Shown here one piece after another: positions 6,001 through 12,000 of a stretch of 15,303 bases of DNA. The position numbers are program-made. Origin of the DNA: Bdellovibrionales bacterium. Lineage in GTDB: Bacteria; Bdellovibrionota; Bdellovibrionia; Bdellovibrionales; UBA1609. The stretch is taken from the NCBI GenBank assembly GCA_050246815.1, contig JBFWVI010000041.1:10877-26179 (forward strand), given 5' to 3'. Numbering within the stretch: the stretch's first letter is position 1; each line of letters starts with the position of its first letter.

Positions 6001-9000
6001 GGTGATCGGGCTGCTAGTGAAGCCCAGTTTCTACAAAATGCCAAAGTGGACGATGTGTTTTCTGGCACCGTTTTTCGTTTGGAAAAATATGGTGCTTTTG
6101 TGCGCCTGCAAAATGGTGTTGAAGGTTTGATCCCGATCAGCGAAATCAGCTGGGGCCGGATCAACCATCTGCAAGATGTTTTGAATCTCGATCAAAATGT
6201 TCAAGTGAAGTTGCTAAAGGCTTCGCAAGAAGAGGGGCGCTTAAAACTGAGCTTTTCGGTGAAACAAGGCGGCAGTGTGGTCGACCCCTGGTTGGCGTTG
6301 CCGTCACAATTTCCGGTGGGTACGCAGGTGGAGGGCGTGGTTGAAGGCAAAGAGTCCTTTGGCCTTTTTGTTAATATTGCCTCTGGTGTGACGGGACTGT
6401 TGCCGCGCTCGGCGTGGCGCGAATCCACCGAAGGTTCGCAGTATGAAAACAAGCGTCGCGGCGACAAGATTAAAGTTCAAATACAGAACATCGATCTGGA
6501 TGCTCGCAAGCTTTCGTTTACGTTGCCGGGAGAAGAGGTCGATGACAGTTGGCGGGGACATGCTTCTGCAGCGGCCACGAAGTCCGGGGGTATGGGCACT
6601 TTCGCGGATCTGCTTAAGGGCGTGAAGCCGAAGTAGATTTGCGATACGCAGTCAGTTGTAAAGTCGTCCAGGCCAGGATTGCGCCGATGATCGCCAAAGC
6701 CTGGTCTTTTTGAGCGTCAAATTCATCACCCTGCACGCCTAAAAAATCAGCCCCGGTGCCGCCACCAAAAGTTTCAGCCACCGCCCATTCAATCAGCTCG
6801 TAAAAAGTGGACCCGCAAATCAAGATCAGAAACGTCAGCACGTAAATTAAAAATGGTCGGGCCTTAAAACGTTTGCTCAGCCATTCGCTGATGGGCAGAA
6901 AGGGCAGCAGGCCGAATAAAAAATGAACCAACCGGTCATAATCATTACGCTTAAAATCTACACTTAGGCCGCTTAAATGTTGCAACCATTCTGCCCAGGG
7001 GACCTTCGAGTAGGTGTAGTGTGAGCCGATGGTATGAAAGACAAAAAACAAAAAAAGAAGAAAGTAGCTAGTTTTGGAGATCAATTGTTTGTGCCAGGTC
7101 CAAAGCACAAGCGGAGCCAAGACCAAAACCAACAGGTTTTCAAGTAACCAGGTGGCACGGTCGATGGGTTGAATGGCCATGGCCAACCAGAAGGCGGCAT
7201 AAATAAGATTAAGTGCACCGGCAAAACCCATCATCACAAGTACAGTAATCAAAAATTCATAAATTCACAATTGTGTAGGCACTTTAAAGTTCGACTTTGA
7301 ATTGTTTGCGCCCGTTTAGGATCAGCGTCCAGTTGTTGTTGATGTTTATCTGGTAGACATCATTGCTGTCTTGGGCCTGCTTGATTTGCGGCAACGCCAT
7401 CAATTTTTTGAGTAGTTTATAGTACGAAGTCAAAACCCGGTGAACATCGATATTTTGAATTTCGGCTTGGGCCAGCATGGCCAGCTCCGCGTACTCACTG
7501 GTCAAATGATACATTTGCTGATTCAATTTTGGGGGATCTTGGTCTGGGTTTTCAAGTAAAGCCACGGCCATTTTGATTTTTTTCTCGCGTGCGGCCTTAA
7601 ATGCTGGCGAAAGACGGCTTTCCAGCTGCGACAGGGGCCATTCCACCGGCGGTGGCACCGGCTTTTCGTTCGGGTCAGGCGGCAGAAGTTTGTGGTGACG
7701 GAACCACTCCATCCAATTATTTTCATCAATCAAGCGACGGATATCCGCGACGTGCATGCGCAGCTCGGTCACCATATGACGATCTTTAAAGTCGATGGTT
7801 TCAATATCCTTTTTTGTCCAAGTTTCAGCGTCTTCAAGAACGGCCATCAAGCCCTGTAAAAAAATTGCCGACTCTTCGATGCTTTTGCCGGTGACTTTTG
7901 GGTTGATCAAAGGTCCTGGTTGGCGCATCACAGCTTTCAGTAGAATAAGCGTTTCAACGGTATGCTCATGTCTTCTTTTGCGTTCGTTGTCATCAGTCGG
8001 CGGCGGCGGGGTCCTTTTTTGCTTTTCGAAAGAAAGGCGAATGGCGCTGTCCACCAGCATCATCGAAACGTCCACACTGTCGGCCTTGCGATTATAAAGG
8101 CGAACCCCGCCTTCAACAGTGGGCAAGATGCTAAAAGTTTCGCTGCGAGCTGTTGCGGGATCGACAACAAGAACTTCTTCAAGTGAAATGACATAAGCCA
8201 TAATGCGATGGTGGATTTTTTCTGGATGGGCTTCAAGCAGGCCCGAGATCAGCAATAGTTCGCCGGGCATCAAAAATAAATCTTCTCGCGTGATCTTCAT
8301 GTCGTTTTGCATTCGCACCGCTTGATCCAGTTTGTTTTCTCGTAACATCAGCTGGATTAAAGCCATCAGCTCATCCACACGCAAGCCATTGGTATCACGG
8401 CCGATCGCCTGATGGATCATGGGTAGGTATTCAAGACCAAGGCCAACAAGATGTTGTTTGTCATGAGCCGGCATTCCGGCATAGCGACGAAATGCCTCTG
8501 TGGCGTAGAGCGCACAAGCCAGGGTGCAAGCATCCTTAAAGTCTTTGGCGGACTCTATGCTCACGGCTGTGGTGATTCGCTCTTTTTCCATTTGCTGAAC
8601 AATCGCGGGCAATGATGGTTGGGTCAGAGCATCATCACATGCCGACTTCGGGCGTCCGGAAGCGTCAGTCGCCCGAGTGACTGGGCTCAAGAGGGCTAGA
8701 GTGAAAATAGGCAGTAGGAATTTAATCATGGTGTATGCCCTTTCGGGATGCGCGTGTCCAAAAGGTCAAAGGCTCTGTTAACGGTTTGCACGAATTCAGT
8801 TTTTTGTTTGTCGTCGGCCGAATATCCCAGGCTTCCAAATCCTAAAAGCAACTTGCGGTATGCCATTTTCACGTCTTTGTCAGACATGTCCATCGTTGTT
8901 TTCAGTACATAATGAGCCCAGGTGATCTGGGTCAAGGGGTCGTTTGCAAGGCTATCGGGGCGTTCTGTGGCTTTGATCCACTTAGTCAGGTACAAAGGCG

Positions 9001-12000
9001 CATCACCGCTTTGTGCGTCACCCCACGTTATAGTTTTGTAAATCTCTGGCGGTGCGGAAGGGGAGGTCGGCCTAAAACCACTTTTAGGTTTTTGGCGATA
9101 GCGGAATTGTTTCCATTCCGCATTGGCCGCCGCAAACAGGCGGTCGGCGGCTTGCAAAATGCTTTCATGGCGATGTCGATTGATCACTTCAATTTCAATC
9201 CGTGTTTGCAAGCGGAACGCGGCGCCGACAAAAGCCATCAGGTTCATGAAGTCCTGGCCTTCATCGCCAGCAAAGTTATGGGCGCTTGTTCCAGACGGCG
9301 CGAATTCATAACCTTGCGAGCTTAGCCGGACTTCCCATTGATTCTGCATATTTTCCCACAAAAATCCTCCCACAAACGCGCGGCGACCGTGGGCCAAGCG
9401 CAGCAAAGGCGGTGGCAGTTCAAAATCCTGACTCGGATAAGGCATCATTTTCAGCTGACCGTCTTGAGTGAGGATCCAAGCAAAAATACTTTGTGGTGAC
9501 TTGAAATGCTCGACCACATACGAAGGGGTCAGACGGGCAAAGACGTCAATGGCCGTCCAGTAGGCCTGATTTTTTTGCTGTTCTTTCTCGGCTGCGGTCA
9601 TGAGGTTTTCAATGCTCTTCCAGTTTTTCAAAATGAAATTTGTATGCGCCCAGGCGTTGATTCGACTCATGGTGCTCAACGGGTCATGCTCTTCGCTGCC
9701 GCTGGTGGCACTGTCCCGTTGATGGCGGCGGGTGTAGTCCGAAAAACCGTAGGTGCGGATTTTGGCTTTTCGTGCCATCTCTAAGGTCAGCAGCTCCGCC
9801 GAGCTTAAGGATTCTAAAAAGGCTTGGGCGGCGTCATCGCGCTGGGCATCTTGGCTGACGTTGATACTTTGAACTTCGCGCAGGCTTAGGCTACGCACAT
9901 GTCGCACGCGTAGGCCCTCGGCCGCGGGCTCTTCCAACCACTCCACCAAAATAATGTGCCCGGGCTCGCTTGGATTTATTTTGTTGTGGATGTCTAAAAC
10001 CCGCGCATAGACCGGTTTGTGGTGGCCGTCCGGAGTGAAGGCGAAATAGCTATTGCGGCCATCCGCGGACAAAGGAAGAAATCGTCCCTCCACATAAGCC
10101 GGTGCAACTTGTGTCATGTTTTGGGAGGCTGCACGAAAGGCCAGTGCGCGGCTGACGGTCTCGGGGTCGCGATGTAAACTTGAAATCAGAGTTTGCAAAA
10201 CAGTTGGTGGTAAGTAGGCCTGTGACATCTCGGCGGCAATGTAATCCGCCACCGCGTCTTGAATTTCAACTTTTTGGCGGGCAGGCGGCATTTCACGAAA
10301 GCGCGTCATATAATTATTTTGTTGGACCAGTGTTTGGTTTTGTATGATCAGGGCATGGCTTTTGCCTGGCAACATCAACGGGCTAGCCGACGCCTGCGAA
10401 GTGGTTGCTGATCCGCTGATTTGCAGATTCGGGTCAACACGGCGGCCGTCCAAAGCGAACAGGCGGGGCCCTTGTTGAGCCAAGAATGAAGGGGATCCGA
10501 GTGGAAACAAGTTCACTGTTAAAACATCCTGATTGCGCCTAAAAAGTTCGGGCGTCACCGAGGTATGGCCGATAAGTTCGGGGCCGATTGTGGTGGTGAA
10601 TGGTCGCATTGAAAAGGGCTCCCTTAAGCGGACCTCTTCGCGGAAAACGGTTGGTTCAGGCGGCGTTTCGGCAAGTGCAAATTTGGGCTTTGGATTTAAA
10701 ATATCTAAGATTTCATCACAGAGTTTGGGCGTGGCGGGGCCAGTCGGCACCGACAACCGGTTGGCGCCAAAAGCGCTTTGCGCGACTTGAAGCGAAAAAA
10801 TTAGCAAAATTAAAGAACGTAGCGGCATCCACAGCCTTCCCAAAACAGAGCAATTCTTGATCAAGCCACAAAAAAGCAAATTAGATGCCGCAGCGAAAAG
10901 GGAGAGAATCAAGTTGTTTCAGTGAGTTAGCCCCCCAAATGGAGCGCCTGCATTGATCAAATTAAGGGCAGGGGACGTAAATGGGCAAAAGGGTACGTGT
11001 TCTGCGCTTTTTCGATTCTCCAAATATGGCGACATGGCCTGCAAAAACTGCAAATGGCGACAACAACAAAAATGTCAGATCTTTTTTAACTGATTCGGGT
11101 GTAGCTTGGCGCTCTTAAGGGGGGATATCCATGAAAACTGTTATTTCTTTACTTGTTATGTTGAGTGCTGCTGTTGCTTTTGCTGGTGAAGGGTCGGCAA
11201 GTTTAAAGGGTGTCAAAGCACTTTCATTTGCAACTTTGGCGAATGCCAAAATCACCGAACAATGCAAAGGACAAGAAAACTGTCGCAGCCGCGGCATGTA
11301 CAAAGTTGAGCTGACTTTCGCGATGCGGGGATGCGTGGATAGGTTAGGCCCAGTAGCGGTTAAGTACGATGACTACAGCAACACTCTGTATGTTGCGGCG
11401 GTCAATTTGCACACAGAACGGTCTGAGCGCGTTCGCTGTGTAGTGCAAGCGACCGAACAGTATAGCCTGATCGTGCCCGGCTTGAATGACGACACGACAG
11501 TAGAGGCTTTAAGCAAGCCGTTTTAATTAGCGCCAAATCTTGAACTCAACCCGTCGGTTTCTGCGACGGCCTTGATAGTTGCCGTTGTCGGCGATGGGTT
11601 GAGCTTCACCGATACCGATCGCTTCGATTTTGGCGGCCGCGACGCCATGTTTTTTGACCAGGTGCTGTTTGACGAAGTTGGCTCGTCTTTGGCTTAAGTC
11701 CAAATTGTAAGCGGCCGCACCCACTGAGTCCGTGTGGCCTTCGATAACCAAGCGATCAAATCCTTTGCCTGCGATTTTTCTGTAAACTTTGTCGAATTGT
11801 TCAAGTCGCGAGGGCGCGATTTGGTCAGAGTTGCGCTCAAACAAAAGATGCAGATCCACGGTGTAAACTTCGGGGCCGCCGCCAAAGCTCTCTTTGAAAG
11901 TTTCAAAGACATTTGTTTTGCAGATCGGGCCCATCACCCAGTTGAAGCCAGCGTAGACACGCCAGTCGGGTCCGCCTAAACTTGCATCAAGGCTGGTGGC

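Follow-up and report, generated by a model that had tools for sequence, protein, structure and literature searches.

A cysteine-containing tag of five residues lies near one or other end of many Sec-exported proteins in a Bdellovibrionales genome. It resembles a kind of address label not described before, whose most likely use is to bring enzymes into prey. The source MAG is taken to be a putative predator. In the parts of the sources consulted, it is an open question how Bdellovibrio-type predators, which have no type III injector, bring enzymes into their prey (PMC2797640, PMC12428579, PMC11055950). No description of the tag was found in the literature searched, a search that left supplements and most subscription journals outside. 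Such a tag would offer a handle for finding the delivery machine and a rule for listing candidate effectors among thousands of orphans, and would speak for the export of DNA- and ATP-dependent enzymes by predators. Whichever chemistry holds, it is unusual for a sorting signal to function from either end of a protein.

Enrichment of the tag and the exported pair in the window

Signal peptides were called by a hydrophobicity rule on our own gene calls, no match was removed by hand, and expected counts were derived from the mid-protein rate. Among 944 soluble non-lipoprotein proteins with a signal peptide, C[DE]xx[LF] was found 49 times at the N-end (3.0 expected) and 22 times at the C-end (2.5 expected), confirming the survey's finding of a terminal tag on exported proteins. 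Soluble proteins lacking a signal (n = 1309) showed no excess (N-end 8 against 10.4 expected, C-end 11 against 8.8), and lipoproteins (n = 157) had one N-end match (0.3 expected) and two at the C-end (0.2 expected). The confinement of the excess to exported proteins counts in favour of a selected signal and of delivery. When 80,000 three-residue patterns were scanned over 867 exported proteins, CD..L ranked first at both ends (N-end 36 against 0.9, log10 p -43; C-end 17 against 1.1, log10 p -14.5). With a second gene caller, which was untrained, the counts were 53 N-end and 25 C-end tags among 1038 proteins. Net of chance there are about 65 tagged proteins, or about 70-85 if 5′-cut or mis-started genes and variant tags are included, which places the earlier figure of about 80 at the upper end.

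The cargo had been characterised as orphans or cytoplasm-type proteins. Many are of this kind, and a cytoplasm-like composition was found in 45/67 tagged proteins as opposed to 276/891 other exported proteins. However, proteases and hydrolases of the ordinary exported type make up many of the annotated cargoes, which counts against the delivery model. The same domain family may be tagged at the N-end or the C-end (S41, alpha/beta hydrolase, TraB). None of 67 tagged proteins has a twin-arginine (Tat) motif, and the GC and GC3 of tagged genes are near control values. No common motif in their upstream DNA survived correction, nor were FliA- or sigma54-like promoters enriched.

The window, meaning the whole 15,303-nucleotide stretch of DNA analysed, contains two examples on its reverse strand, both of which are real. 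The first gene, g02241 (8726..10828), encodes a 700-residue exported orphan made up of a predicted Sec signal peptide (rule-based; residues 1-21, 10766..10828), a linker, the tag CDEIL (10706..10720), an unknown middle part and a C-terminal J-like domain. The tag cysteine, Cys37, is the only one in the protein. The degenerate J-domain (8750..8923, boundaries approximate) has lost the HPD that both homologs keep. Three homologs had been reported, two of them with a J-domain; two were found here, one above and the other below the Pfam DnaJ cut-off, and both do retain the tag (CLDMF and CKVVL). There was no match to g02241 in 60 relatives, and its structure model (pLDDT 40.5) was too poor to use and gave no fold match.

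The stop codon of g02241 and the start codon of g02240 overlap as ATGA (8726..8729, reverse strand), a sequence suggestive of translational coupling. The second gene, g02240 (7284..8729, reverse strand), encodes a 481-residue exported orphan with a signal peptide predicted by the same rule (residues 1-20, 8670..8729), the tag CDDAL at Cys31 (8625..8639), a probable cysteine-peptidase domain and a helical C-terminal part. Its tag is kept in 4/4 full-length homologs (CESLF, CDSVF, CDGLF, CGDFL), and a distant homolog is also tagged (CNFIL). Cys68, His174 and Asp190-Pro191 (8160..8528, reverse strand) are invariant in five sequences, and the spacing of Cys68, His174 and Asp190 is presumably that of a papain/C39-type triad; the putative domain found no Pfam, PDB or profile support. 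For both proteins the ESM Atlas gave leads under 0.9 only.

Form of the motif and state of its cysteine

The motif as first given, C[DE]xx[LF], is too narrow. Judging from homologous sequences, the tag across Bdellovibrionota is C-x-x-h-[LFI], at both protein ends, with D at +1 as a local dialect. Position +4 is L, I or F in 37/45 N-tags and 24/25 C-tags of homologs, +3 is strongly hydrophobic in C-tags and mixed in N-tags, and +7 has no aromatic or other preference. The +1 residue class is common to unrelated cargo of one genome in 23/44 pairs (11.0 when shuffled, p = 0.001), in 12/24 once same-locus pairs are left out (5.9, p = 0.011) and in 45/74 of a larger set (18.0); the control position -2 gave p = 0.022 in the strictest subset, which counts against the dialect. 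The statement that no protein is tagged at both ends is correct for the strict pattern, but fails for C-x-x-x-[LF], which occurs at both ends of C4:87077-88312 in this genome and of two proteins in relatives (L356, L365).

An odd number of cysteines was found in 59/70 tagged chains against 190/563 exported controls with at least one cysteine (Fisher p = 3.5e-16). The controls lean to even counts, as an oxidising periplasm would lead one to expect, and there are also DsbA-like and VKOR-DsbA-like genes. From these counts, the tag cysteine is apparently unpaired. It had been described as often the only cysteine, which is so for 32/70 tagged proteins, but not for g02240, which also has Cys68 and Cys72. 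In an AlphaFold model the folded domain does not include the tag, which lies on a helix (37-42) of low confidence. Two proteins have the cysteine as their final residue with no helix behind it, which counts against the delivery model.

This arrangement recalls the Mia40 docking signal (MISS/ITS), which in the part of the source consulted is a short, portable amphipathic helix with hydrophobic residues +3/+4 from a docking cysteine that forms a mixed disulfide with Mia40 (PMC2806287). A cysteine with hydrophobic +3/+4, the helix and portability are common to both, and a mixed disulfide would be a further likeness if the model set out below holds. On the same partial reading of that source, MISS/ITS is eukaryotic and mitochondrial, requires an aromatic at position 7 and acts on substrates whose partner cysteines resolve the bond, whereas the tag here follows Sec export, stands at either terminus, prefers no aromatic and has a single cysteine.

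Retention in homologs and relatives

A search for topoisomerase IB gave 19 matches in 18/301 genomes. All seven signal-bearing proteins, two of them cut by contig ends, have exactly one cysteine, at residue 20-33 directly after the signal, whereas the 12 without a signal have 3-9 scattered cysteines. The catalytic R, K, R, N and Y are invariant in 12 aligned proteins. On this contrast the tag appears to track the export of cytoplasm-type enzymes, although the exported topoisomerases may form one clade (1-2 changes), so that 7/7 does not stand for seven independent events. No tag was seen among the cytoplasmic P450s read from the best 30 loci.

The tag is kept across divergent homologs while the linker varies. 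N-tags were found in 4/4 MutS-like homologs and 25/25 SpoVR-DUF444 fusions, and C-tags in 4/4 M16 homologs and 22/25 of the genes upstream of the fusion; 2/2 ClpB-like proteins have a C-terminal cysteine. An exported ClpB-like protein, C34:19272-21659, has no cysteine at all, and counts against the delivery model. The C-end form, which the survey had not seen in 1.2 Mb sampled from four relatives, does occur in relatives. In other genomes, selection by the motif alone led to nucleotide- and DNA-dependent cargo.

No tag excess was found in an outgroup (166 exported proteins from 1.33 Mb of DNA). In B. bacteriovorus s4 the tag is scarce, with about two convincing cases in 800 kb, which also counts against; a further genome, G268, has no tag in the 100 kb sampled, yet one tagged operon is present. 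A cultured, genetically tractable predator does have conserved tagged proteins. Two tagged orphans of a laboratory B. bacteriovorus strain are G428:C1:920867-922027 (387 residues), whose lone C-terminal cysteine recurs in its HCB337 ortholog, and G428:C1:2636571-2638127, with CDSIF at the N-end. An alignment scan of genome contigs for SpoVR-DUF444 returned mostly cytoplasmic SpoVR genes, 72/80 loci being used as an outgroup. The fusion was not found in five Bdellovibrionales genomes searched (four cultured strains and one MAG), nor in 201 genomes from the phylum to which an Archangium record belongs. The latter search returned one partial DUF444 match, without signal or tag.

In this genome, a signal-plus-tag profile (A2) returned for the most part the sequences on which it had been trained; its best E in four others was 0.09, and it is unusable for genome counts. 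It found nothing beyond E 0.11 in NCBIfam or beyond E 0.94 among PDB chains. Searched against NCBIfam, 39 N-terminal tag segments gave no match except one at E 0.11.

Proposed delivery to prey and the alternatives

The survey had proposed a sorting or modification tag for proteins meant for another cytoplasm. This is our inference also, and it fits the unpaired cysteine, its position outside the domain, its retention, the coupling seen in topoisomerase IB, the cargo and its composition. The tag is very probably a selected signal read by a common factor, and the prey cytoplasm is the likely destination. We propose a portable cargo handle on enzymes that the predator sends into prey. By rule-based prediction, the cargo would cross the inner membrane via Sec. 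The statistics show that it keeps one unpaired cysteine, no more than some 30 residues from one terminus or the other, as part of a short free helix, C-x-x-h-[LFI]. The face formed by the cysteine, +3 and +4 would then fit into a groove on an envelope protein encoded by the predator, where the cysteine would form a mixed disulfide with this putative carrier or tether. The carrier would hold or route the cargo at prey contact, type II or Tad machinery being the likely exit. In the prey, the reducing cytoplasm would break the disulfide and set free enzymes dependent on ATP, DNA, Hsp70 or nucleotide cofactors. We give this whole chain, from mixed disulfide to release in prey, slightly less than an even chance; both destination and chemistry are what we infer.

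Neither an obvious unpaired-cysteine partner nor a candidate carrier was seen in this genome's T2SS, T4aP and Tad clusters, which counts against the model. NanoLuc with a bare Sec signal reaches the B. bacteriovorus supernatant, according to the part of the source consulted (PMC12622784), so the tag would not be required merely for leaving the cell. According to the portions consulted of two sources, digestion of the prey cytoplasm takes place in situ, and how the enzymes are exported is not known (PMC11055950, PMC12428579). We hold more tentatively that this is a phylum-wide route of effector delivery, in which Sec-exported cytoplasmic machines (topoisomerase IB, MutS-like proteins, AAA+ unfoldases, J-domains, PrkA/SpoVR and sigma-region proteins) would be clipped by a single thiol at one terminus or the other to a common carrier of the predator and freed in prey cytoplasm for remodelling beyond digestion. 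If so, the effectors of any genome in the phylum could be predicted from the tag.

Known delivery signals match in part. A-B toxins of the diphtheria, cholera and typhoid types are disulfide-linked, and the enzyme is encoded together with one dedicated delivery chain. They too have an enzyme chain with a terminal cysteine potentially released by reduction in the target cytoplasm, but here dozens of unrelated, mostly unlinked enzymes have a common tag and no delivery chain is known; within the short flanks inspected, no recurring neighbour of tagged genes was seen. The PEXEL, RxLR and Y/F/WxC host-targeting motifs of eukaryotic parasites are likewise short, follow a signal peptide and mark diverse effectors for another cell. 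Their sequences differ, they are N-terminal only and PEXEL is cleaved, whereas the tag here also stands at the C-end. MYXO-CTERM and related C-terminal sorting tags, likewise borne by a range of exported proteins in a predatory lineage, have an invariant cysteine followed by a transmembrane helix and a basic cluster. The proteins tagged here, in contrast, are soluble, with 22 C-end matches in the class without a membrane segment and two in the class with one.

The main rival to a mixed-disulfide carrier is lipidation of the thiol (S-acyl or diacylglyceryl) by a lipobox-independent enzyme, which would anchor cargo to the outer membrane, vesicles or prey membrane. It would explain the unpaired cysteine equally well. 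Two Lgt genes occur in 5/5 genomes of the phylum and two MBOATs in this genome; however, one lgt sits in the usual ileS-lspA context, and a cysteine-rich Lgt type is widespread outside Bdellovibrionota. Some relatives (L149, L157, L468, L478) have the cysteine at or beside the cleavage site in a lipobox-like context, and paralogs of one tagged S9 peptidase resemble ordinary lipoproteins. The bacterial lipoprotein signal is the lipobox, with Lgt, LspA and Lnt (consensus as given in the part consulted of PMC12462473), and it too has one essential cysteine near the N-terminus of a Sec substrate. The tag is not a lipobox. Its cysteine lies 2-28 residues past an SPase I-type site, [LVI][ASTVI][GAS] directly precedes it in 2/51 N-tags, and a C-terminal form exists (26 tags), with no membrane anchor to present the cysteine to Lgt. 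Nor do the flanks show a basic or hydrophobic membrane patch, and we consider lipidation unlikely.

A periplasmic folding or holding signal, such as a DsbA-type docking peptide on enzymes that undergo no true translocation and act in the predator's own envelope, in vesicles or inside the prey shell once it is open, is improbable: intramolecular oxidation cannot resolve a lone cysteine, most exported proteins do without such a tag, and the topoisomerase, MutS-like and sigma-region cargo could not work without DNA or RNA polymerase. We also strongly doubt that the tags lock partner subunits or homodimers by disulfides, with no common reader needed. Tagged genes do adjoin one another above chance (16 against 4.3 of 77), each of the three components of the exported PrkA/AAA/SpoVR-DUF444 system is tagged, and a few proteins have a tag at each end. 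Yet 61/77 lack a tagged neighbour, exported topoisomerases stand alone, as do most M16 homologs, tagged neighbours pair N+N, C+C and N+C alike, and unlinked, unrelated cargo have the +1 dialect in common. That the finding is an artefact of the way signal peptides or genes were called, or of selection by hand, is hardly credible: although signal peptides are rule-based and the list holds about five chance matches (TIM, LysE and LepB among these), the enrichment, pattern scan and homolog retention already refute it, as the counts stand without removals, with two gene callers and after correction for 80,000 patterns, and homologs from several families within the phylum have the tag too.

Besides TIM, LysE and LepB, the TPR, CBS and solute-binding matches were rejected as chance, as was a C-end match in a TrbI-like gene that lies inside a conjugative element. 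The CBAH match in strain HCB337 is the catalytic cysteine and not a tag.

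Enrichment of a terminal cysteine tag

The tag was counted over 3031 called genes, with signal peptides assigned by a hydrophobicity rule and no matches removed by hand. Among 944 soluble non-lipoprotein exported proteins, C[DE]xx[LF] was found in 49 within ~35 residues past the signal (3.0 expected) and in 22 within the last 35 residues (2.5 expected). The enrichment at both ends in the survey's finding is therefore upheld without hand-dropping. No excess was seen in 1309 soluble proteins lacking a signal (8 against 10.4 expected at the N-end, 11 against 8.8 at the C-end). D leads all C-X-x-x-L patterns (39 against 1.0 at the N-end, 19 against 0.9 at the C-end), and when 80,000 patterns were scanned without bias, CD..L ranked first at both ends. 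The tag lies 2-28 residues past where cleavage is predicted, or 7-32 residues from the C-end, most often with P, D, A, S or V before it; the tag list contains about five chance matches. This terminal thiol tag is real and selected, and apparently undescribed. Literature searches on the tag or its context yielded no description of it, and the main text of PMC12428579, PMC11656739 and PMC12622784 does not contain the word "cysteine"; supplements could list such proteins. The predator literature drawn on also includes PMC2797640, PMC11055950 and PMC12419801.

Tag density is high in the source genome and in three others (G203, G006, G084). It is low elsewhere in the genus, where 228 kb yielded a few, and among cultured strains. 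The enrichment of C-x-x-x-[LF] over 800 kb of B. bacteriovorus s4 is no more than 2-3-fold, with about two convincing cases, one a 387-aa orphan whose lone C-terminal Cys is also found in its HCB337 ortholog. Outgroup DNA (1.33 Mb, 166 exported proteins) showed no excess, and a search of 201 genomes from the phylum to which an Archangium record belongs recovered no SpoVR-DUF444 fusion, a tagged family; this sampling of other phyla is too thin for the tag to be called phylum-specific.

Homologs (45 N-end and 25 C-end tags) give the consensus C-[E/polar]-x-h-[LFI], with D directly after the Cys (+1) rare outside the source genome (5/66). The +1 class tends to agree among unrelated cargo within a genome: E in G298, K/R in G296, hydrophobic in G006 and N in G203. 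The same class was shared by 23 of 44 within-genome pairs against 11.0 when shuffled (p 0.001), by 12 of 24 against 5.9 without same-locus pairs (p 0.011, where the control position -2 reaches 0.022) and by 45 of 74 against 18.0 once proteins picked by motif were included, related genomes and sequences not being independent in these counts. Owing to this non-independence, the dialect lends moderate support to a genome-encoded reader.

Tagged cargo and its conservation

A Pfam scan covered 82 proteins (all 89 pattern matches minus five housekeeping-type signal-less C-end ones and the two window proteins), of which 33 had a family and 49 none. Among the families were DnaJ, P450, FtsH-like, ClpB-like, PrkA, other AAA+ ATPases, SpoVR-DUF444, PPDK_N, GT2 and an FAD oxidoreductase, alongside alpha/beta hydrolases and proteases of the S41, S9, M3, M16 and trypsin-PDZ types. 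A classifier based on composition with Cys left out (AUC 0.78) called 45/67 tagged proteins cytoplasm-like, against 276/891 other exported proteins. Eighteen proteins chosen by motif from other genomes included topoisomerase IB, MutS, sigma-70 region 3, CP-ATP-grasp, M16, metallophosphoesterase and FAD oxidoreductase; six had no family and two only a weak or unknown-function one. Three of the 18 were set aside as chance or catalytic.

Of 401 genomes in the phylum, 24, spread over many families, carry the SpoVR-DUF444 fusion. Its Cys, behind a variable linker, is kept in 12/12 database matches (two from the source genome) and does not vary across an alignment of 32 sequences with a mean identity of 31%. 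The N-end Cys is present in all 25 copies read. For 22 of them the upstream gene encodes a C-end Cys, while the remaining three have upstream genes of different types; the C-end form, which had seemed to be missing in relatives, is thus present there. In an AlphaFold model of a tagged SpoVR-DUF444 protein (32 sequences, mean pLDDT 80.8) residues 16-45 fall below 50 and the tag is predicted as a short free helix ahead of the domain start. The source genome (G000) holds at least two exported PrkA / large AAA+ / SpoVR-DUF444 systems (G000:C35:3-7606, C73:37-8226, C131:1-3243, C143:44-2572), in which SpoVR is fused to DUF444, and also a cytoplasmic DUF444 gene. Linkers ahead of the tag are often His/Asp-rich in homologs (loci L137, L147, L154 and L159, proteins P0004 and P0005), a composition that may indicate metal binding. 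One homolog (L521:24-3515 (-), genome G436) has one in-frame stop, with the N-end tag and the upstream C-end tag present.

Topoisomerase IB is the cleanest test of the coupling between tag and export. Among 19 matches in 301 genomes, the seven that bear a signal each have exactly one Cys, at residue 20-33, against 3-9 scattered Cys in the 12 without a signal; the catalytic residues are intact. Within the best 120 database homologs, four (including the query) had a convincing signal, with a lone mature-chain Cys in that same region; six other rule-called signals were judged false. On the tree the export label needs only 1-2 changes and exported copies have long branches, suggesting one or two origins and long retention. 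The tag is kept at the C-end in 4/4 M16 homologs and at the N-end in 4/4 MutS-like homologs, and 2/2 ClpB-like homologs behave alike, the Cys being the last residue in one. Neither a tag nor a real signal is present in any P450 read from the 30 best loci.

Cys is the final residue in an exported J-domain protein (G000:C16:58640-60325 (+)) and in an exported ClpB-like protein (L463:1423-3927 (-)), which may be the tag in its minimal form. At L355:147-11360 (+) (G203:C1) lie ten tandem exported paralogs of ~375 aa, with one Cys each in a CNFSF-type tag; the first has no good Pfam match. G000:C12:4502-17510 is a conjugative-element-like cluster with a recombinase, a TrbI-like gene and other transfer-type genes.

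A spare thiol and its possible use

Cys counts were odd in 59 of 70 tagged mature chains (a single Cys in 32), against 190 of 563 exported controls having at least one Cys; non-exported proteins divided into 568 odd and 484 even. The even bias of exported controls, together with DsbA-like and VKOR-DsbA-like genes, points to an oxidising periplasm. The simplest use for a single thiol kept there is a bond between molecules, and a tag that serves at either end speaks for a covalent handle, not for threading that starts at one terminus. We infer, tentatively, that disulfide docking for prey delivery is the most likely function: the tag Cys would bond to a shared partner, the cargo would be delivered to prey and reduction would free it. 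The Cys/+3/+4 face of the tag fits the docking geometry of the mitochondrial ITS signal on Mia40, as given in PMC2806287, but the tag is not a member of the Mia40 pathway.

Locking of partner proteins by their tags would suit the adjacency of tagged genes, which is above chance (16 against 4.3), but is weakened by the 61 of 77 tagged genes without a tagged neighbour and by the solitary topoisomerase genes. A simple export signal is argued against by NanoLuc, for which a bare Sec peptide suffices to reach the B. bacteriovorus supernatant (PMC12622784). A ClpB-like AAA+ protein with a signal peptide and zero Cys (G000:C34:19272-21659 (+)), an exported ATPase without the tag, counts against the tag being necessary.

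No candidate reader was singled out among the T2SS, type IVa and two Tad secretins, two Lgt genes and two MBOATs of the genome. The Lgt genes (G000:C30:13626-14744 and C10:44658-45356) comprise a canonical one with a long insert and a Cys-rich type beside lspA; two Lgt copies were present in 5/5 genomes of the phylum.

The tagged pair of the window and its neighbours

The contig holding the window (C41) belongs to a 3.4-Mb genome. The tagged proteins of 700 aa (g02241, window 8726-10828 (-)) and 481 aa (g02240, 7284-8729 (-)) are encoded by coupled genes joined by an ATGA overlap, and neither has a Pfam family. The tag is kept in 2/2 homologs of the former and in 4/4 full-length homologs of the latter.

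The window also encodes two other exported proteins: a large one without a Pfam family (13312-14835 (-)) and an OmpA-domain protein whose N-terminal part is long (11527-12825 (-)). The 65-aa gene at 13038-13235 (-) encodes a bacterial histone-fold protein, with close homologs in records of Bdellovibrionales, Elusimicrobia and Myxococcota and its nearest relatives mostly from Bdellovibrionales. A UvrD/Rep-like helicase (1-603 (+) plus adjoining upstream C41) appears as two overlapping frames, one of ~230 and one of ~200 codons. These are unusually short, possibly through a frameshift or assembly gap. The gene at 1126-1740 (+) matches an IS200-like (Y1) transposase weakly, below the Pfam cut-off, and a frame resembling this transposase lies at the end of another contig, C54.
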